From Lachnospiraceae bacterium (GTDB taxonomy: Bacteria; Bacillota; Clostridia; Lachnospirales; Lachnospiraceae), in NCBI GenBank assembly GCA_016282595.1, contig JAEEKV010000154.1, forward strand, positions 1-49,538: DNA of 49,538 nucleotides, read 5' to 3'. The translations under genes and the position numbers were made by a program. Below the pieces are notes generated by a model. The model did not search any database and had not been told where the DNA came from. It worked only from the letters and a program-made list of their open reading frames with translations. Below are positions 1 through 9,049 of this stretch, one piece after another (position 1 is the first letter of the stretch; the number at the start of each line of letters is the position of its first letter).

Positions 1-3000
1 GAGGGGCTTATGATGAAACTCCGCATCCAGGATACCCGCTGTTAACGTGTAATTGTTTGCTTCTATGGCCTGCACATCGGAAACCACATCCGTATTAAAG
101 TCATCGTTCCCCAGGGTGATGGAAAAGGTTCCTCCTCTTTGTATAAAGGTATCAGTTCTAAAACCACGGACCAGACTCGGGTGCTGGGAATCATCCTTTG
201 AGATGGCATCGGAGGTGATGTTGATCTCACCGGATTCTACCACCAGCTTCGTAACATCCATTCCGTAAATATATGCTCCCTTATTGGATACATAGGCTTT
301 CACATCCAATTTACCACTGCCCTTAATGGTATAGCCCCCCTGCTCAATGGTGGAATAGTAGGGATTTGTATAGCCGGGATCATAGGCAGTGACGTAGTTT
401 GGGTCTGCCTTGGAGCTTGCCGCGCCGATGAGGGAATTGTAGCCCTCTATATAAATGATGGCATTCTGGGTATATTCCTTGGAAAAGATGGCTGCCGTCA
501 GCTTTTTGTCCTCCTGAGAGGGATTGTATTTGCCGGATTCATAAGCCGTACCCTCTACAACGATATTACTTCTGTCGATGATAACACCGTTTAATGTAAT
601 CTTCGGAACAAAGCCCGTGGTTGCCCCATTACAAATCCGGTCATGAGAAACACTGACATCATCCCGCATGGAAATGGTGATGGGCTTTTCCGAGAGGATG
701 GTCAAAAGGCCTGAGCCGTCGATTTTCTGATCTTCAGCATCGTACTCCTCTGTGTAGGTGTAGTCTGAATCCTCACTTAAAATACCGCCGTCGGTCCTTG
801 ACAGGACAAAATCACCCACCTCATAGGAGATGTTTTCCAAAACCGTAGCCGAAATACTGAGACCGGCGGGACGATAGCTTTCGTCTCCTGCAAATTCCGC
901 GGTAAGGGTATAGCTTCCTACAGGAAGATCCGGGATGCTGATTGTTGTCTCGCCAAATGAATCCGTTTCAATGGTATAACTCTTTTCAGCAAAGGCAGGA
1001 TCCGCATTGGCCCGCAGGGTTACCGTTATCGTTTTGTCGGTTATCGCCAGGCCTGTTTTTGTCTTCAGGGAAAAAGATGCCTGCAGTTCTTCTCCGGATT
1101 TTACGGAAATATCTCTGCTTGCTGCGTCCAGCTTCGAGGACATCCTGCTGCCGCTTTGGAAGACGGCAGAGATCTGCGAATTTGCCGAAACAGCATCAAA
1201 ATCCGCATAGAAGTTTCCTTCCTCTGTTTCGATCCCATCCTTTTGTGTCTCGCCAAGGGAGATGGTGGTAACGGATTTTCCTTCTGCAGGATATACCCAG
1301 ACTCTCACCGGAGATCCGGAGACAAGAGACAGGCTGCCTATGGCAAAGGCGCCGTCAGAACTCTCTCCCGATGTTAGAGTTATCGTGTTGGTTGGGGCTC
1401 CCAAACTGCTTGCTGCAGATGTGGGAAGCCGGTAGCCCATATTGTCTTCATGAGGCTCATGAGAAGTCCCGTTAAAGTCCGTAGCGTTTTTCATAAAATT
1501 CGTAAAGACGGCCGTATCGCCTTGACAATCCCAGGTAGGATCGCAGTAGTAATAAGAGCCGTCTATGGATACAATGACCCAGCCGTGCATACCACCGTTT
1601 TCGCTGCCTACCGGAGTTCCCCAGCCTTCCACATAGCTGGCCGGGATGCCCTGTCTTTGCAGCAGAAGAATATAGGCCTTTGCGAAACCGTCGCAGACCG
1701 CTTTTTTCTCTAAAAAGGCACTGCCTGAGGACTGATCGATAAAGTTAGCATCGTAGCTGACCCAATTTGCCAAGGCCTGATAAAGTACATAGGCCTTCTG
1801 ATAGTCGGTCATGGAAGCGCAAACGCCGGAGGCCCTTTCCACCATGGTTACCGCCTCCTCAAAGGCCTCACTTCTGGATTGGAATTTGGAGGCATTGTAG
1901 CCGTTTTTCAGGATCAGGGTGGCACCCGTAGCGCCGGGTCCGATTCTGTCGATCCAAAGCCACCAATACTCAGGATGATCATATTGCAGGGCAGTGACGA
2001 TGGCCTGAGACTGGCCCATATCAAATCCGTAATTCATGCCGTAGGAAACCGATACACTGCTGCCTGCGCGAAATGCGTCAAGATCCGTTAGGGCCATATC
2101 GTATGCTGCCGCAAAGTCCTGACCATTTTCCTTTTGGGAAATTGCCTTCCTTGCGATCATGCCCTCCAAAAAGGCTGTTGCATCTGCAGTGTAAGCCACC
2201 TTATAAGGGTAAGTTGTTTGAGTTGCTGCGTCCTGATTGGCGGAAAGCTCCACCAGACGGGCTGCGCCCCGGTTTACGGTGCCGGCATAAACAGGATAGC
2301 CATAAACACTTCCGCTGCTGCCGTTGGCAAAGCAGCCCCCTACGATAGTTGCGTTGGTACAGGATATTTCTCTGCCATTAGAGGACTGTTTTGCAGCTTT
2401 GATACAGCCCCCTGCAATATACAGGTTGCGTTTGACATAGATTCCGTATTCTTGGCCGGCTACATCAAGACTTCCGTTTCCATCGATATCCAGGTTCATG
2501 GCACGGATACCCGCTAGGACATCATCCTTTGAGGGGGTGTAGCCGCTGTAAGTACTCTTTACATTGCTGCTTCCGGCACCCACCAGAGTATTCTCACCCT
2601 TCAAAGTAAGGTGCAGATTTCCCGCATACTCCACGCCGCTGTCATAGTGGACCTCAGTTCCCTGGAAATACACGGCATACATGGCGGCCCTTTGCTCGGG
2701 GTAGAGTCCCGTTACCAGATCGACACCCTGATAAAAGATGTTTTCCCCGGAGCGGTCGATGTGAACGCCGTCCAAAGTAATATGTCTGACCTCTTTTGTA
2801 TTGGTGGGAGAGGACACATAAATATAATCCTTGGTAACCGTCTTTCCATCCTTCATGGAGATGGTCACATTCTTATCGGTATTGATGATCAAAAAGCAGC
2901 CTTCGTCCTCAGAAGCCGCTCCGGAGAAGGTTACGTCTCCCTCCCGGCCCCCTTCTACGGTTGCCACCAGGTCGCAGTACTCTACGGAATACGTTGTCTG

Positions 3001-3144
3001 CTCACTAAGGGTCTCCGCTGCCAGGCTTTCCTTCTCGGCGTATGCGGGCTGCGCTGCCAATCCTGCCACCAATGCCATAGACAAAAGCAGCGTCATCCAT
3101 TTGCTGTTTCTTTTGCTTCTTTCTTTTTGGTTCTTCATAGTCAT
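1..3144 (-). CDS. Secreted transglutaminase-like (Cys-His-Asp core) domain protein. Only the N-terminal 1048 codons are present; the ORF runs off the left edge.
   Basis: Absent from the ORF track because there is no stop in the window. My own translation of the minus strand is open from ATG 3144 (GGAGG 5 nt upstream) to base 1. The N-terminus MTMKNQKERSKRNSKWMTLLLSMALVAGLAAQPAYA is a signal peptide. Around 1510-1700 the translation reads KKAVCDGFAKAYILLLQRQGIPASYVEGW..GGMHGWVIVSIDGSYYYCDPTWD, the transglutaminase-core triad pattern. NLDIDGNGSLDV near 2470-2500 is a Ca-binding-loop-like motif. Confidence 0.8.
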   Translation of the reverse strand, partial: MTMKNQKERSKRNSKWMTLLLSMALVAGLAAQPAYAEKESLAAETLSEQTTYSVEYCDLVATVEGGREGDVTFSGAASEDEGCFLIINTDKNVTISMKDGKTVTKDYIYVSSPTNTKEVRHITLDGVHIDRSGENIFYQGVDLVTGLYPEQRAAMYAVYFQGTEVHYDSGVEYAGNLHLTLKGENTLVGAGSSNVKSTYSGYTPSKDDVLAGIRAMNLDIDGNGSLDVAGQEYGIYVKRNLYIAGGCIKAAKQSSNGREISCTNATIVGGCFANGSSGSVYGYPVYAGTVNRGAARLVELSANQDAATQTTYPYKVAYTADATAFLEGMIARKAISQKENGQDFAAAYDMALTDLDAFRAGSSVSVSYGMNYGFDMGQSQAIVTALQYDHPEYWWLWIDRIGPGATGATLILKNGYNASKFQSRSEAFEEAVTMVERASGVCASMTDYQKAYVLYQALANWVSYDANFIDQSSGSAFLEKKAVCDGFAKAYILLLQRQGIPASYVEGWGTPVGSENGGMHGWVIVSIDGSYYYCDPTWDCQGDTAVFTNFMKNATDFNGTSHEPHEDNMGYRLPTSAASSLGAPTNTITLTSGESSDGAFAIGSLSLVSGSPVRVWVYPAEGKSVTTISLGETQKDGIETEEGNFYADFDAVSANSQISAVFQSGSRMSSKLDAASRDISVKSGEELQASFSLKTKTGLAITDKTITVTLRANADPAFAEKSYTIETDSFGETTISIPDLPVGSYTLTAEFAGDESYRPAGLSISATVLENISYEVGDFVLSRTDGGILSEDSDYTYTEEYDAEDQKIDGSGLLTILSEKPITISMRDDVSVSHDRICNGATTGFVPKITLNGVIIDRSNIVVEGTAYESGKYNPSQEDKKLTAAIFSKEYTQNAIIYIEGYNSLIGAASSKADPNYVTAYDPGYTNPYYSTIEQGGYTIKGSGKLDVKAYVSNKGAYIYGMDVTKLVVESGEINITSDAISKDDSQHPSLVRGFRTDTFIQRGGTFSITLGNDDFNTDVVSDVQAIEANNYTLTAGILDAEFHHKPL

Positions 3145-3211
3145 ATCTGCCTCCTTGCATCCATGCTAAAGTAACTCTATTTTATCACTTTTTGCGCAGT
3201 TTTGCACACTT

Positions 3212-4414
3212 TTATCCCATTTCCCGCCCCTTATAATAGGCGTTGACAAGGGATCTGTATCCGAGGTCTTTCAACGTCTCGTATTTGACGTTGAATCTGG
3301 CCTTGGTATGTCTGCCGCTGAGCAGATACCGCAGGCAATCCTGGGCGTACAGGTCGATCTCGTGCAAGCTTTCAGTGGTATTGATCACCGGAAAAAACCA
3401 GTTACTCCAGGAAAGCTCGTTATCCCGGGGGCTCTCCAGAAGTTTTCTGTTGAAAACTCGGATAAAGGCCGCTGCCGCCTTTTCCCTTGAAATATCATTC
3501 CGTTTGCTCCAGCGCATAAGGGCATCCCGCTTTCGCTTCATTTTCTGCTTCAGCTTCTTTACCGTAGCAGGAGCGATATCGATCTTTTCCCTGCTGCAAT
3601 AAATTCCCAAGAAACTAAATCCCTCCCCGGGCTCATAAAAGCATTCCTTCTCCGGATTGATGGACAATCCATACCGATCCAGATGCCGGTGCAGGTATTC
3701 CGCATGCTCACGAACCTTTTTTTCAGAAGGCGCAAACAATATGATATCGTCGGAATATCTGGCGTACAAAACGCCCTGCTTTGTAAAGTGCTCATCCAGA
3801 TCCGCCAAAAACAGGTTGGCAAAAAAGGAGGATTGGGGCGTTCCCGCCATGATGCCCTTTTTCTCTCGCACAATCCCATTCCGGAAGGAAACCCGCTCCT
3901 CTGTCAAAAGCGACTTCAAAAAGGCATAGAGCTTCGGGTCGTCCGAGAGGGCTTCCTGCAGCATGGGCAAAAGCTCTGTAATAGGGATGGAATTAAAATA
4001 ATCGTGAATGTCTGCCTTGTAGGCATACAGACGGAACAGATCTTTTTCCTTTAAAAGGTACCTCACCGCATCCTTGGCGGTCCGGCCGGGTCTGAAAGAA
4101 AACAGGCCCTGCTGAAACAAGCCATCGTATCGCCTCAGCATCAGATAGGTCAAAAGCTTTAAAACCGTACTTTCCGCCTCCGGGTAGGTATAAACCACCC
4201 GCTTTTTCTCCGATCCCATCTTGCTGATCACGGCTTTTTCAGGTAACGCAAACTCCCCGCCCGATTGAATGGTTTCGCAAACGGGGAGGTACTTTTTTTC
4301 CTCAATAAAAAAACGAAGTTCCTTCGTAAACTGCTTCGGGCAAGCCAGGGAGCACTTATAGTCGTAGAACCTGCTCCAGGCAGCCCTGTCATCCAGTCGG
4401 TCCAGTAGAGACAT
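3212..4414 (-). CDS. Free-standing reverse transcriptase (RNA-directed DNA polymerase), 400 aa, catalytic motif YSDD
   Basis: RT motifs occur in order: FSFRPGRTAKDAV, YKADIHDYFNSIP, GIMAGTPQSSFFANLFLADLDEHF, YARYSDDIILF (YSDD = 3746-3757), LSINPEKE, GFSFLGIY. A helical tail of about 120 aa follows. GAGGA lies 7 nt upstream of ATG 4414. There is no endonuclease or other fused domain. Confidence 0.9.
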   Translation of the reverse strand: MSLLDRLDDRAAWSRFYDYKCSLACPKQFTKELRFFIEEKKYLPVCETIQSGGEFALPEKAVISKMGSEKKRVVYTYPEAESTVLKLLTYLMLRRYDGLFQQGLFSFRPGRTAKDAVRYLLKEKDLFRLYAYKADIHDYFNSIPITELLPMLQEALSDDPKLYAFLKSLLTEERVSFRNGIVREKKGIMAGTPQSSFFANLFLADLDEHFTKQGVLYARYSDDIILFAPSEKKVREHAEYLHRHLDRYGLSINPEKECFYEPGEGFSFLGIYCSREKIDIAPATVKKLKQKMKRKRDALMRWSKRNDISREKAAAAFIRVFNRKLLESPRDNELSWSNWFFPVINTTESLHEIDLYAQDCLRYLLSGRHTKARFNVKYETLKDLGYRSLVNAYYKGREMG

Positions 4415-4426
4415 TTTGTATCCTCA

Positions 4427-4572
4427 TAAGAAAGAAACAGAAGGAGAATCCGTTAAATCCCATAAATTATGGGATGTACCAGACCGTACACGAAGATGTT
4501 GCCTGCGAAACATATGATTCTTCGTGCCTGGCCCGCCGCAGGCGCAAATAGCGTTCTCCTTCTGTTTTCTTA
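4427..4572 (-). ncRNA. Candidate structured non-coding RNA (RT-associated template or guide RNA), closed by a 19-bp inverted repeat. Strand is assigned only by co-orientation with the RT.
   Basis: The arm 4554-4567 ttctccttctgttt is the perfect reverse complement of 4435-4448 aaacagaaggagaa. Pairing extends by 5 bp (4568-4572 with 4427-4431) across a 3-nt bulge. The 105-nt interior contains hairpins at 4526-4543, 4489-4526 (7+5 bp) and 4457-4475 (7 bp). The element ends 12 nt before the RT start codon. Confidence 0.5.
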
Positions 4573-4606
4573 CATCTTATTGTGTGCCGGATCCCCCGGC
4601 GAAAAA

Positions 4607-5098
4607 TTACCTGATGGCTTCTTTCATGCGACGAACGACATAGGAACGGGTATTCCACCATCCGTCATGATCATAGTAAAAGCGCAGGTATGGAACGTTT
4701 TCCTTCCACGCAGTATTACGGATCTTCTGGGCGCTGCTGCCTTCATTCATCAGCTCCAGCATCAGAACCTTGGTGCCTCCTGCATAAAAGGTATAAAAGG
4801 TGCGCTGCGTTCCGGCAATGTCTTCCCTATCATATCGGTATTCCGAAAACTCAGTGTCAAAAATGTTCTCAAAATACTGGATATAGGTTCCGCCGAAGTT
4901 GTACTGGTTTTCTTCCTCCGGCATCATCTCTCCCCAGGAATCCCCGGAAGCATAGGATTGCACCGGGTCAGAAGCATAAGAAGCAGCTTCCCGCTTGGCA
5001 GTTTGCTCCTTGGCATTGTCAATCAGACCATTCACCAGATCTCCTACTGCCTGCGAATCCACACCGAGTCCGTCGAGTAATTTGTTAAATAGTCCCAT
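4607..5098 (-). CDS. Hypothetical 163-aa cytosolic protein with no recognised family
   Basis: ORF with AGGGGG 6 nt upstream of the ATG, starting 10 nt after the stop of the upstream surface-protein gene. Amino-acid composition is normal. The N-terminus MGLFNKLLDGLG looks like an amphipathic helix, and the C-terminus is aromatic-rich (YLRFYYDHDGWWNTRSYVV). Confidence 0.65.
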   Translation of the reverse strand: MGLFNKLLDGLGVDSQAVGDLVNGLIDNAKEQTAKREAASYASDPVQSYASGDSWGEMMPEEENQYNFGGTYIQYFENIFDTEFSEYRYDREDIAGTQRTFYTFYAGGTKVLMLELMNEGSSAQKIRNTAWKENVPYLRFYYDHDGWWNTRSYVVRRMKEAIR

Positions 5099-5108
5099 AG
5101 CTTACCCC

Positions 5109-8100
5109 CTATTTTTTAAGTTTTTTATACTTGATCCCCTTCGGGGCGCCTCCTTTCTTGATGGCAGCCTTCAGGGTCTTCAGCTGTTTGGTGGTTGTAT
5201 TCTTCGGATAGTAAATAACCGCTTTCTTATAGATGTTACCAAAGGCCTTCTTGCCGACTTTCTTCTTGGTGAGCTTGGTGCTGTAAATATAAAGCTTTTT
5301 CAGCTTGCTGCAGCCGGAGAATGCATTTTTACCAACCTTACTTACTTTCTTACCGATGGTAAAGGATCCCAGCTTCTTGCAGCCCTGGAACGCACCATCT
5401 CCGATGGCGGTTACTTCGTCGCCCTTGATGGTAATGGTCTTAATATTATTGCAATCCTTGAAAGCGTTCTTTCCGATGGTTTTAACGCTCTCCGGAATGG
5501 TTACTGCGGTAACGGCTGCATTCTTTTCAAAGGCACTGTCTTCGATCTCGGTTACCTTTGCGTCCGCTCCGTTTGCCAGCTTCGTAGTCTCGGGAATATC
5601 CACCTTACCGGAAGCCTTCTCATCACCTGCATAAGCCAGGGTTGCTACTTCTTTTCCGGTCTCGTCCTTCTCAGTTCCGGTTACCACATAGGTAGCTCCT
5701 GTCTGGTCCTGGACCTCTGTTCCTGCCTTGGGAAGTTCAGCTGTCTGGGTTGTTCCGGGCTGGTCCTGTCCGCCCTGCTGGCCACCTTGCTGACCGGGTT
5801 CGGTGGTTGCAGGTTTTGATTCAAGCCTGGCAATCGTTTTCTTTTCCTGATAACCGCATACACTGCAGGTATAAGTCATCTCGCCTTCAGCGGCCTGTGT
5901 TGCCTCCTTAGTCACCTTTCCGTTATCAAAGGTATGCGCTGCCTTGTCCATCACAAAGCCGTCACCGGCGGTACAGAGATGCCAATGGCCGTCTGCATCA
6001 CTCAGCCACTTTGTGGTATCTGCTGTATGGGTATGGGCCGGCGTTGTGCCTGCCTTTGTCCATTTCGCATACAGGGTAAAGTCAGAATCAACCTTGGAAT
6101 CAAAATCATATGCATTTTTCTGATTCCATTTTTCAGTATACCATCCGTCAAAGGTAAAGCTTGCTCTGGTCGGATCTTCCGGCTTTTGTACCTTCTCTCC
6201 TGCGTTCACCGTCTGAGAAGGAACTGCGCTGCCGACTCCGGTATCGAAGGATACGGTATAGGAAAGGAACAACGGACCCGTTGCATCAGCACCGGTGCGG
6301 CCGATCGCAAGCTCTCTACCGCTTTCGCCATCCCAGGCACCTTTTGTGATAGCACAGTCCTTTAGTGTGATCTTAGAGACAGGTATCGTAGTGGCACCTG
6401 TTATGCCAAGGTTAGCGTCCTCTTTGCACCAGGCCTGCAGATTGGAATTTTCAATCGTCATTGTGGATCCGCTGCCGGCTCTGATCATATCTCTCGGATA
6501 GATCTTGCTGTTCTTGATCTTGATCGTTACATCCTTTTCTCCGCAATCAATACAAACCTGTCCACTATCATCGCCGATCTTACTTTGGGTAATGAACAAG
6601 TTGCTGTCGGTTCCGATCACGGTTTGCTCTATGGGATAATTCGGCCCCTGCCAGAATGTATCCCGGTTGATCAATGAATTTTCTATGCTCAGGCCTTTTG
6701 CTGCCTTGAGAGAGGTACCGTCTATCACCGCATTTTTGATCGTCAGAGTTTCAGGAAGATCCGCATACAGCTTCGTGATCGTGGCACCGTCTATCGCAAC
6801 ATCCCCAAGCACAGTGATTGGCAGGCTATATACGTCATTAAAAGGTACTCCTTCAATTTTATAATTTTCTGCCAGTACGGTTCGTTTCAGGCTTCCCTCA
6901 CCGCAGATCGTAAGATCTCCATATGCCCTGATGGCATCCTCAACGTAGTAATTGTTCCCATCTGCCCTAATCTCGTTCTCTCCCACCAGCACGATTTTCA
7001 GATCAGGAAGACAACTGATAATGGATGCCCTTTTATACTGCTCGTAATTATCCGGATCTTCAGAGATATGAATCTTAGCCGAATGCAATGCGGTATTGCC
7101 CGAAACTGATGCATGATCCAATGTCAGCGTATTGGTTTGAGGATCAAAGGTAGCTGTTCCCTCTCCACACTGAACTGACAGGTTATCATCGGAAATCACC
7201 TGATCCCCGACAGTAAGCGGATATCTGTGATCTGTAGGATCGGTATTAAACAGGTAAGCATAATCCGGGAAGTAATTCTTATAGTACTCTAACTGACCCT
7301 CCGGCACATTGATCGTAAGATCAATATCACATCCGATGAACTGAGATCCGCCTACTGCAAGACTATGAGAATAATGAATCCCGCTTCCTGTTGTATTCAA
7401 ATTGATTGTCTTTAATTTACTACAGTTCCTGAAGGTGTAGTAGCCGTTAACCGCGGTTCCCGTGAAGGTAACTTCCTCCAGCTGCGTGCAGTTTGCAAAA
7501 ACGCCTTCGGCGGAAATATAGTTGGGATTTTCATCCTTATATCCCGTTTTGATAGTTTTTACCTTTCCGGGAAGAGATGTATCTTCCGCCCTGGCCTTTG
7601 CCCACTTTTCAACGCCTTTGTTATTCAAAAGCCAAAGCGTACCATCGTCCGTCAGCTCCCACTCATTCTTTTCCAGATTTTCCTTTGTATCGCTTGCCCA
7701 CTTGGCATAGAGATTATGGATCATGCCTGTAGAATTCGTTGCAAAGAAATAATCATATACATCTTTTCCATTTTCTTTTGTTATAAAGCTGCCGTAAAGC
7801 GCACTTTTCTTATAGCACCAGCCAAGGAAGGTATCACCATCCTTTTTTGTGGGAATAACAGAGTTAAGATCAAAGGTGTAGGACGGATCATCTTTCGTTC
7901 CCACATTCTTTGCTTCCAGCATCCATTTATCGCGGCCATTTATCGATCCGCCATTGGTATGAAAGATCACAGTATGACCGTTGCCAAAGATCGGCTGCAT
8001 CGTTATATGTCCGGTTTTATTAACGGTCTGGTTGGAACAAACTCCCTCCGCATCCGCATCATAAACTACTGTCACATTTGTATAATTGGTCTCTTTCGAG

Positions 8101-8849
8101 CTATACCCAGAAGAGGTGCCATCCCACCCCTCGAACGTACTTTCTGTCTTAGTCGGATTCGGAATGCTGATCGTATAAGGCACATCAGTCAACCAGTAAT
8201 AACGCGGGAAATTCAGATTACTATATGTTCCCGCATCCCAATGATAAGAAGATAACTCATCATTGTTTGAACCTTCATAGTTAATCGCATAATATGGCTT
8301 ATAGTAAGATACATGTAATCCTACTGTCAGATACCATTCCCCCTGTTCGCCCATACTTCCGGAAAATCCAAGAGAAAGAAGCACCGGATAATCAGAGTTG
8401 TTGATATACTGCACCGGAACCTCATATTGGCTTCCGCCTGCTTTTGTGATCGATTCGCTGCCTTTTACACTAACACACTTTGTCGATGTTACATTAAAGC
8501 CAGTTCCAGCCGAATTCGAGGTACTGCCCTCAAAATCATAGGTATATGCATGTTCATCTGAAGCAGTTCCCCAATAACCAAGGGATAAGTAAGAATTTTT
8601 TCCATTTTCATTCTTAAACTCATATACCTTAAACTCAAAGGTATCCCCGGGCATAATTAGCTCACCTTCCGGATGATAACTGATATCTCCGTTTGAATCT
8701 TTTGTTGCCTCAAACACATGATGCTGCGACTTCCTGTTTTCCAGTACCGTCGGCTTCTCCACGTCCTCTGCAAACACCGCCATGGGCAGAAGTAAAGCAA
8801 ACACACATACCATCCATGACTGAAGTAAAAACCTTGAAATCCTTTTCAT
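5109..8849 (-). CDS. Large secreted surface protein with Listeria-Bacteroides (Flg_new-type) repeats and BspA-type leucine-rich repeats
   Basis: The start is trimmed to ATG 8849 (AAAGGGAGGAAGAAACAG-ATG), giving MKRISRFLLQSWMVCVFALLLPMAVFA as a signal peptide. Flg_new-type repeats include FEGWDG.., FLGWCY...LYAKW and FDGWYTEKW...FTLYAKW. LRR_5-like units include FANCTQLEEVTF, FRNCSKLKTINL, IGKNAFKDCNNIKTITI, IGDGAFQGCKKLGSFTI and VGKNAFSGCSKLKKLYI. There is no LPXTG motif; the C-terminal tail is basic. Confidence 0.85.
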   Translation of the reverse strand: MKRISRFLLQSWMVCVFALLLPMAVFAEDVEKPTVLENRKSQHHVFEATKDSNGDISYHPEGELIMPGDTFEFKVYEFKNENGKNSYLSLGYWGTASDEHAYTYDFEGSTSNSAGTGFNVTSTKCVSVKGSESITKAGGSQYEVPVQYINNSDYPVLLSLGFSGSMGEQGEWYLTVGLHVSYYKPYYAINYEGSNNDELSSYHWDAGTYSNLNFPRYYWLTDVPYTISIPNPTKTESTFEGWDGTSSGYSSKETNYTNVTVVYDADAEGVCSNQTVNKTGHITMQPIFGNGHTVIFHTNGGSINGRDKWMLEAKNVGTKDDPSYTFDLNSVIPTKKDGDTFLGWCYKKSALYGSFITKENGKDVYDYFFATNSTGMIHNLYAKWASDTKENLEKNEWELTDDGTLWLLNNKGVEKWAKARAEDTSLPGKVKTIKTGYKDENPNYISAEGVFANCTQLEEVTFTGTAVNGYYTFRNCSKLKTINLNTTGSGIHYSHSLAVGGSQFIGCDIDLTINVPEGQLEYYKNYFPDYAYLFNTDPTDHRYPLTVGDQVISDDNLSVQCGEGTATFDPQTNTLTLDHASVSGNTALHSAKIHISEDPDNYEQYKRASIISCLPDLKIVLVGENEIRADGNNYYVEDAIRAYGDLTICGEGSLKRTVLAENYKIEGVPFNDVYSLPITVLGDVAIDGATITKLYADLPETLTIKNAVIDGTSLKAAKGLSIENSLINRDTFWQGPNYPIEQTVIGTDSNLFITQSKIGDDSGQVCIDCGEKDVTIKIKNSKIYPRDMIRAGSGSTMTIENSNLQAWCKEDANLGITGATTIPVSKITLKDCAITKGAWDGESGRELAIGRTGADATGPLFLSYTVSFDTGVGSAVPSQTVNAGEKVQKPEDPTRASFTFDGWYTEKWNQKNAYDFDSKVDSDFTLYAKWTKAGTTPAHTHTADTTKWLSDADGHWHLCTAGDGFVMDKAAHTFDNGKVTKEATQAAEGEMTYTCSVCGYQEKKTIARLESKPATTEPGQQGGQQGGQDQPGTTQTAELPKAGTEVQDQTGATYVVTGTEKDETGKEVATLAYAGDEKASGKVDIPETTKLANGADAKVTEIEDSAFEKNAAVTAVTIPESVKTIGKNAFKDCNNIKTITIKGDEVTAIGDGAFQGCKKLGSFTIGKKVSKVGKNAFSGCSKLKKLYIYSTKLTKKKVGKKAFGNIYKKAVIYYPKNTTTKQLKTLKAAIKKGGAPKGIKYKKLKK

Positions 8850-9049
8850 CTGTTTCTTCCTCCCTTTACATATTACTGATTCCGTACGGCAAATCATTAT
8901 TGACTGAAACAATGGCCGCACCTGCTACAAGTATCTATATTCTACACAGTTTCGCTTCTATTTTCAATCAATTTGCTTAATCCGGGGGTTTCTTATGGGA
9001 ATATTAAGAATATCAAACGTTTAAGATACGTCGTAAGCAAAAGATGGGA

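Follow-up and report, generated by a model that had tools for sequence, protein, structure and literature searches.

A conserved, pseudoknotted RNA of the RT-5 family accompanies the UG26-type reverse transcriptase of a Lachnospiraceae genome

The class 2 UG/Abi reverse transcriptases (RTs) studied to date, i.e. those of DRT2, DRT9 and DRT10, the UG8 enzyme of DRT3, and UG27, use linked non-coding RNAs (ncRNAs) as templates (10.1101/2025.10.16.682844; 10.64898/2026.09.22.753630; PMC9226505). Every one of them makes an unusual DNA product off its own small RNA, and most groups of the class are unstudied. DRT2 carries out rolling-circle synthesis with the RNA 3′ end as primer, DRT9 produces tyrosine-primed poly-dA off a U-tract, DRT10 makes tandem repeats primed from a C-terminal serine or tyrosine, and UG27 generates short hairpin complementary DNAs (cDNAs). 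For group UG26, no ncRNA was reported by Mestre et al. 2022, who found a COG2852-labelled partner in 9 of 35 members (PMC9226505). The RT-5 RNA (Rfam RF03026) in turn is one of the motifs RT-1 to RT-19 described near RT genes by Weinberg et al. 2017, in whose paper a role in retrons or diversity-generating retroelements was only speculated on and the RT class was unnamed (PMC5737381). Our literature search found nothing on RF03026/RT-5 itself, or linking RT-5 to UG26, and a single relevant paper on UG26. Here we analyse a stretch of 49,538 nucleotides (nt) from a Lachnospiraceae bacterium (GenBank assembly GCA_016282595.1, contig JAEEKV010000154.1, positions 1 to 49,538; hereafter the window), in which a hairpin-rich element lies on the minus strand directly upstream of an RT gene. 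The element is the gene for an RT-5 RNA, the RT is of UG26 type and thus class 2 UG/Abi, and in the sampled loci RT-5 is the dedicated ncRNA of UG26-type RT modules with the order accessory gene, RNA, RT.

Identification of the RNA was achieved with a permissive-threshold Rfam scan of positions 3000-5500, in which the single real match was RF03026 (4445-4547, minus strand, 88.5 bits against a gathering score of 45.7, E-value 1.2e-17), spanning model positions 1-104 of 104 and stopping 30 nt before the RT start codon. That the core belongs to an existing Rfam family had been overlooked in the first-pass annotation of the sequence, which described a multi-hairpin element closed by an inverted repeat. 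An extended covariance model (R1), comprising the Rfam helices together with helices P0 and P1 introduced below and excluding the pseudoknot, matched window positions 4425-4576 over its full length (1-154) with 139.4 bits and an E-value of about 1e-25. The RT was assigned by the PADLOC profile RT_UG26 with an E-value of 2.8e-175 over residues 1-397 (the profile having 398 positions), the runner-up profiles being a generic RT (1.5e-31) and UG27 (1.1e-30), with UG17 among the next-best. The Drt2 profile matched residues 178-314 only (E-value 9.3e-19), and the retron-type profile RT_I-B gave a partial match of 2.5e-14. The catalytic motif YSDD is intact (RYSDDIILF), its RY-DD core being at least 90% conserved among 55 sequences, and a conserved C-terminal LGYRSLVxxYY precedes a short variable tail (window 3212-3250), with Y393 at least 90% conserved.

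Scanning of one genome per species resulted in 61 loci with RT relatives of 37-78% identity, all from rumen or gut metagenome-assembled genomes of Lachnospiraceae, Ruminococcus, Erysipelotrichaceae, Bacteroidales, Coriobacteriales and Methanomassiliicoccales archaea; no RT relatives were found in a viral contig collection. Rfam RT-5 was detected above the gathering threshold beside the RT in 52 loci, and the extended model placed the RNA at E<0.001 in 55 loci plus L056 with filters off, i.e. in 56 of the 58 loci with flanking DNA. Each of these loci carries one copy, as does the window. The RNA travels with the RT over bacterial phyla and into archaea, and the earlier proposal of a structured RNA that is discrete, has a functional tie to the RT and is read from its strand is supported. 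RT-5 accompanies a UG26 RT in gut or rumen Methanomassiliicoccales archaea at L038:1288-1440, L046:3782-3954 and L056:2814-2987, which suggests transfer of the module between domains. Two of these loci, L038 and L046, have the RNA 3′ of the RT, and that of L046 overlaps the end of the RT open reading frame (ORF).

The strand of the RNA is that of the RT: only in this sense does an invariant G-U pair occur, together with many more of the kind, and matches of the extended model on the opposite strand score far lower. In this orientation the 14-bp closing helix P0, one strand polypurine and the other polypyrimidine, encloses the small hairpin P1, the long bent hairpin P2-P3-P3b and the short hairpin P4, and the apical loop of the long hairpin pairs with the strand just 5′ of its own hairpin base as a 6-bp pseudoknot (Table 1). 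The stems are conserved at homologous loci: in a 56-row alignment from the extended model, both-sided changes were found in 39 of 46 pairs, and 92.1% of cells pair, compared with 73.8% in shuffled columns (reached in 0 of 500 shuffles) and about 46% with slid partners, a result which holds on an alignment made by MAFFT only. Folding of positions 4415-4610 had been suggested earlier as a check, and the minus strand yielded -70.7 kcal/mol (z -5.5) with none of 200 shuffles as stable; for the plus strand the values were -69.2 kcal/mol and z -7.3, likewise with 0 of 200 dinucleotide shuffles as stable.

Table 1. Coordinates of the RNA element, its helices and the adjoining genes in the window.
Feature	Position	Strand	Basis
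Whole RNA element, bounds as first annotated	4427..4572	-	model R1 and Rfam RT-5 core
P0 5′ arm AAACAGAAGGAGAA, polypurine	4554..4567	-	both-sided changes, purine bias
P0 3′ arm UUCUCCUUCUGUUU, polypyrimidine, followed by U/C-rich tail	4435..4448	-	raw flanks, alignment
P0 5-bp extension, 5′ side UAAGA (partner 4427-4431)	4568..4572	-	in minimum free energy (MFE) fold; not a conserved model position
P0 5-bp extension, 3′ side UCUUA	4427..4431	-	sequence and MFE fold
P1, small hairpin CGC-UAUUU-GCG	4543..4553	-	near-invariant base G-C/C-G
Pseudoknot 5′ strand CCUGCG (partner 4502-4507)	4537..4542	-	covariation
Pseudoknot 3′ strand CGCAGG, in apical loop UCGCAGGC (4501-4508)	4502..4507	-	covariation
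Long bent hairpin P2-P3-P3b	4480..4535	-	Rfam consensus and covariation
P2	4530-4535 with 4480-4485	-	Rfam consensus
P3	4520-4527 with 4488-4495	-	Rfam consensus
One-sided internal loop AAUCAUA	4513-4519	-	Rfam consensus
P3b	4509-4512 with 4497-4500	-	Rfam consensus
P4, hairpin CCCAUA-AUU-UAUGGG (third hairpin of the first-pass annotation)	4459..4473	-	covariation
J3, unpaired joining segment AUUUAACGGA with conserved UUYAA, directly 5′ of P0 3′ arm	4449..4458	-	
UG26 reverse transcriptase, 400 aa, YSDD, C-terminal LGYRSLVxxYY	3212..4414	-	PADLOC, Pfam RVT_1
Accessory protein, 163 aa, RTasCOG2852 family	4607..5098	-	PADLOC
Possible weak -10 box TAAGAT	4574..4579	-	read from sequence; absent from consensus scan

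The two most conserved blocks of the RNA, CCUGCG (4542-4537) and CGCAGG of the apical loop (4507-4502), are mutually complementary, and as the 6-bp pseudoknot they are paired in 99.7% of cells with both-sided changes in 3 of 6 pairs, including the compensatory variants CCCGCG/CGCGGG, UCUGCG/CGCAGA and CCUGUG/UACAGG. Because the pseudoknot was left out of the covariance model, this pair count is independent of it. P1 is paired in 94.6% of cells with both-sided changes in all three pairs, and takes longer covarying forms in homologues, e.g. GUGAC/GUCAC and GCGGCC/GGCCGC; the Rfam match covers only the 3′ half of P1, GCG, which the consensus line places in its unpaired 5′ flank, and leaves out the 5′ half. 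Both-sided changes were found in 10 of 13 pairs of P2 and P3 together, in 4 of 4 pairs of P3b and in 6 of 6 pairs of P4 (96.7% paired). From the three interior hairpins originally drawn, the second (4489-4526) and third (4457-4475) match Rfam helices and covary. The first, GCCUG/CAGGC (4526-4543), had to be abandoned: with 62.2% of cells paired it is at shuffle level, and it showed no both-sided changes in 56 homologues. It can be drawn in the window sequence but is not the conserved fold, and its 5′ half is one of the pseudoknot strands. Within the joining segment J3, T121, A124 and A125 do not vary, and conservation of T122 reaches at least 90% (alignment A1).

The one-sided internal loop is variable in sequence and mostly 7-9 nt long, with 0-2 nt (usually 1) opposite; among the 49 RNAs analysed for repeats its length ranged from 6 to 19 nt, and a few homologues have inserts of about 60-90 nt in it. 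Such inserts, with extra hairpins, were located in the internal-loop/apical region of the central hairpin at L003:2785-2992, L004:2786-2985 and L042:2757-2945, and the insert of L003 holds a second copy of the GCAGGCAGC block.

The closing helix lies almost wholly beyond the Rfam RT-5 model. As first described, the arm 4435-4448 (aaacagaaggagaa) is the exact reverse complement of 4554-4567 (ttctccttctgttt), five more pairs (4427-4431, taaga, with 4568-4572, tctta) follow a 3-nt bulge (4432-4434), and 12 nt separate the 3′ arm from the RT start, with GAGGA at 4425-4421 and ATG at 4414-4412. Only the 14-bp core of the proposed 19-bp helix is conserved; the additional five pairs are present here but specific to the window, and homologues lengthen P0 by A-run/U-run pairs instead. 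The core showed both-sided changes in 13 of 14 pairs with 87.6% of cells paired in the 56-row alignment, and on the plain MAFFT alignment, which is not fitted to structure, the corresponding values were 11 of 14 and 82.6%. In the raw flanks of every Rfam hit, an upstream purine-rich stretch pairs with a pyrimidine-rich one that begins in the last positions of the model. The purine arms differ by lineage, each with its own complement (AAACAGAAGGAGAA, AAAGCGGAGGGGGAA, AGAAAAAGGGGA, GGCGGGGAGGGCGG). Over 56 loci purines make up a fraction of 0.90 of the 5′ strand of P0 and of 0.09 of the 3′ strand; the other helices, at 0.41-0.58, are without this asymmetry, which base pairing alone does not account for. 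Directly after the 5′ arm follows an almost invariant A-N-G-C (A in 55 of 55, G in 55 of 56 and C in 51 of 56 RNAs), and at least five U occur within 8 nt past the 3′ arm in most loci. A role of P0 as terminator only was rejected: loci L039 and L034 keep the closing helix (as judged by eye) despite dedicated terminators, so P0 is also structural. A Shine-Dalgarno/anti-Shine-Dalgarno reading of the arms was rejected as well, as most homologues have GAAAGAGAA, which is not Shine-Dalgarno-like, and the RNA may sit far from the RT gene or past its end.

The weak promoter candidate noted at first is present as described, with TTCGCC (4603-4598) and TAAGAT (4579-4574) separated by 18 nt. If TAAGAT acted as a -10 box, the RNA 5′ end would lie near 4567-4570, and the 5-bp extension of P0 may then be upstream of the start. 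The position-wise -10 score over 56 loci rises only slightly, in a region that is A-rich, and the conserved upstream motif of Erysipelotrichaceae-type loci proved to belong to the final part of the accessory coding sequence. L039 and L034 have clear promoters at the place equivalent to TAAGAT. In L039 the order is promoter (TTGCAA-17-TATAAT with upstream TG), RNA, 10-bp terminator with T-run, second promoter, RT, and terminators are likewise situated between RNA and RT in L034 and L044. The RNA can therefore be an independent transcription unit, and since it has a promoter and terminator of its own in some loci and follows the RT in two archaeal ones, it is a discrete RNA and not a leader only. 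In the window an origin by read-through, as initially considered, is probable: the accessory stop codon lies a median of 13 nt from P0 (47 loci), 39 nt in the window. Between the accessory stop and the RNA there is also a GC-rich hairpin (4586-4600, GCCGG-GGGAU-CCGGC) with a GGATCC site and no U-run after it, which could be a processing or protein-binding site, or due to chance.

The explanation which best fits these results, and which we regard as probable by analogy, is that the RT-5 RNA serves the UG26 module as scaffold and template for cDNA synthesis. In most loci including the window, the RNA would arise from the accessory-gene transcript, and P0 with the downstream U-rich run would act as a leaky terminator, so that the RNA would be abundant and the RT made from read-through. 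The one-sided internal loop may be a hinge by which the apical loop bends back into the pseudoknot, since to pair there the apical loop has to come into contact with the strand at its own hairpin's base. The folded RNA would then bind the RT, perhaps together with the accessory protein. A scaffold and template function is the most likely one because a linked ncRNA is the template in all class 2 UG systems studied, and priming may use the conserved C-terminal tyrosine of the RT; this residue is reminiscent of the priming residue of DRT10, which is compatible with protein priming and proves nothing. The biological output is presumably anti-phage.

Other functions of the closing helix were considered. 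In a retron-like msr-msd, as the first-pass annotation had weighed, P0 would correspond to a1/a2, the conserved G would prime from its 2′-OH to give a branched RNA-DNA product, and the template would begin in the segment just 5′ of the P0 3′ arm. The branch context of retrons is AGC, which the A-N-G-C after the 5′ arm recalls, the helix itself is conserved, an unpaired conserved segment lies opposite A-N-G-C, and the RNA is directly upstream of the RT. However, the RT is UG26, with retron-type RT models matching only partially at about 1e-14, no msr family was among the Rfam matches at E-values up to 10 (3000-5500), and no long msd-like stem is present. The G two nt past the 5′ arm, found in 55 of 56 RNAs, is paired within P1, its G-C dinucleotide forming the base of that covarying hairpin, and in the class 2 UG RTs examined to date, protein or the RNA 3′ end supplies the primer (10.1101/2025.10.16.682844). 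Membership in the retrons was rejected on the RT class and the Rfam search, and a retron-like mode of action is quite improbable. The asymmetry of P0 and the A-N-G-C nevertheless lead us to keep a small probability, the largest of those given to the alternatives, for a broader proposal in which the two form a platform for priming or product handling in a hitherto undescribed mode of bacterial reverse transcription, e.g. a non-retron RT priming from a 2′-OH in retron fashion, a primer resembling a polypurine tract, or a triple helix about the pseudoknot like that of telomerase; if true, a new kind of cDNA product would be made in gut and rumen bacteria and archaea. Rolling-circle synthesis of DRT2 type, the other template model raised at the outset, has P0 join the template ends while the interior is copied into concatemeric cDNA with a hidden gene, and we hold it to be the least likely of all. 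A closing stem does bring the ends together, and DRT2 is a class 2 relative as the Drt2 profile match indicates. Yet the interior is almost fully paired, conserved and pseudoknotted, as expected of a scaffold rather than of coding sequence, its length varies via hairpin insertions, and stop-free concatemer frames occur in only 11 of 55 RNAs in sense and 8 of 55 in antisense. The concatemer of the whole window RNA has no stop-free frame, and a DRT2-like hidden gene was rejected for lack of a conserved one.

The core of telomerase RNA has the layout closing helix, boundary helix, loop and pseudoknot. The same order is found in RT-5, where the variable single-stranded loop lies between the P3 boundary and the pseudoknot and could hold a short template for repeat synthesis as in DRT10, whose arrangement consists of SL5 plus a template loop (10.1101/2025.10.16.682844). 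The C-terminal tyrosine and the rank of the UG17 profile point in the same direction. Against this, direct repeats of at least 3 nt occur in 37% of the internal loops compared with 49% in shuffles, hairpin-bearing insertions of about 60-90 nt are tolerated in the loop, the 163-aa accessory family is the only conserved neighbour, no SLATT partner is present, and a hinge explains the loop equally well. An A-B-A′ template, looked for in the internal loop only, was rejected for want of enrichment, and we consider such templating about as improbable as the retron-like mode. A somewhat less remote alternative, though still an unlikely one, is that the RNA is a purely cis-acting leader which regulates the RT by attenuation via P0 and the U-run, or by occlusion of the ribosome-binding site (RBS), with no cofactor or template role. 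The RNA of the window ends beside the RBS, 12 nt before the start codon, P0 with its U-rich run is terminator-like in most loci, and the pyrimidine arm could pair with the purine-rich RBS sequence. The gap between RNA and RT start, however, varies from 17 to 240 nt across loci, L039 has a terminator and a fresh promoter in this gap, in L038 and L046 the RNA comes after the RT, and a complex pseudoknotted fold, highly conserved in its sequence over phyla and domains, exceeds the needs of an attenuator.

Several observations weigh against the scaffold and template function. Three template signatures gave negative results, i.e. A-B-A′ repeats in the internal loop are not in excess, concatemers have no conserved stop-free frame, and the UG27 start motif AUCN7UANAG has no match within 4415-4606. 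Two loci, L029 and L041, have a full-length UG26 RT and no RT-5 detected within 3 kb on either side with filters off. No consensus sigma-70 promoter was called before the RNA in the window, and P0 with its 105-nt structured interior is not a canonical terminator. The counts for the nested helices derive in part from an alignment fitted to the model, and the defence prediction for UG26 was rated inconclusive by Mestre et al. 2022 (PMC9226505).

The accessory ORF (4607-5098) matched PADLOC RTasCOG2852 with an E-value of 1.5e-53 and gave no Pfam hit; its gene directly precedes the RNA in 47 of 61 loci. The 312 homologues of the protein are all unnamed and without Pfam domains. Its AlphaFold2 model has a mean pLDDT (predicted local distance difference test) of 81 and is confident over residues 55-163, and the invariant residues are E62, N64, Q65, E115, Y137, R139, Y141, GWWNT 146-150, Y153 and R157. 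A Foldseek search with the model against PDB returned nothing significant (best E-value 0.04), with a few weak restriction-endonuclease-like folds. Identification as a PD-(D/E)XK nuclease was rejected: no Pfam hit and no PDB sequence hit were obtained, fold matches were weak only, and the motif D...ExK is absent from the invariant residues. Because neither a Pfam or significant fold match nor an invariant D...ExK was found, the nuclease label of the family is unconfirmed.

The setting of the module in the window is chromosomal, its neighbours being genes of housekeeping and surface type, with phosphofructokinase, a SpoU methyltransferase, a cell-wall hydrolase and a large BspA-type surface protein nearby. 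Immediately upstream of the module and on the same strand, positions 5109-8921 encode a 1270-aa secreted protein with BspA-type leucine-rich repeats and a Listeria-Bacteroides repeat. Downstream of the RT, window positions 1-3200 hold short ORFs only (87-187 aa) without Pfam hits, and no conserved gene was found downstream of the RT among the 61 loci. Transfer RNA (tRNA) genes are located within 1-2 kb upstream of the module at L059:2103-2186, L032:791-864 and 1873-1946, and L030:758-828, and may be integration hot spots for a mobile island. A cobalamin riboswitch at L027:6686-6877, downstream of the locus, is unrelated to the module.

Taken together, the RNA is a real member of a known Rfam family, and templating of retron, DRT2 or DRT10 type is unsupported. 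An orphan Rfam motif of 2017 is hereby tied to an orphan RT group of 2022, in a three-part module which is constant in rumen and gut Firmicutes, Bacteroidales, Coriobacteriales and methanogenic archaea. No new principle is revealed by the finding alone; for experimenters, window positions 3212-5098 offer a compact module of about 1.9 kb with specific mutants to try.

In comparison with the described systems, a retron msr-msd is similar in having an RNA closed by an inverted repeat and located immediately upstream of the RT, with a conserved G just inside the 5′ arm; it differs as the RT here is outside the retron clade, no msr was matched, the G is base-paired, and an msd-type long stem is missing. 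From DRT2 the module is set apart by its RT, which is not of group UG2 and meets the Drt2 profile over part of its length only. With DRT10 (UG17) it shares a class 2 RT, a linked ncRNA, a third protein, a helix upstream of a single-stranded loop, and a conserved C-terminal hydroxyl residue on the RT, whereas the A-B-A′ pattern and the SLATT protein are absent here and the RT belongs to another group. UG27 is the next-closest RT family, with RNA units of about 150 nt that likewise have a basal hairpin, a main hairpin with an asymmetric internal loop, and a pseudoknot, with accessory proteins without known domains, and with an RNA that is reverse transcribed (10.64898/2026.09.22.753630). The UG27 units, however, form arrays of diverse sequence in phage genomes and are accompanied by two accessory proteins (10.64898/2026.09.22.753630), whereas a single highly conserved copy per locus, in cellular genomes with none in viral contigs, and one accessory protein were found here. 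The match to the UG26 group of Mestre et al. 2022 (PMC9226505) is end-to-end in the RT and includes the COG2852-labelled neighbour, the difference being the presence of the RNA in 56 of 58 loci and of the accessory gene in 47 of 61. With the Rfam RT-5 family the window RNA has in common the central hairpin, the 3′ hairpin, the conserved blocks GCGCCUGCG and UUGCAGGC, and the adjoining RT gene. Set against the Rfam consensus line alone, which has 12 unpaired positions at each end, these flanks and the sequence beyond them form the 14-bp P0 and P1, and the two conserved blocks pair with each other as a pseudoknot. The link to UG26, the closing helix, P1, the pseudoknot and the constant three-part module are what the present analysis adds to the family.

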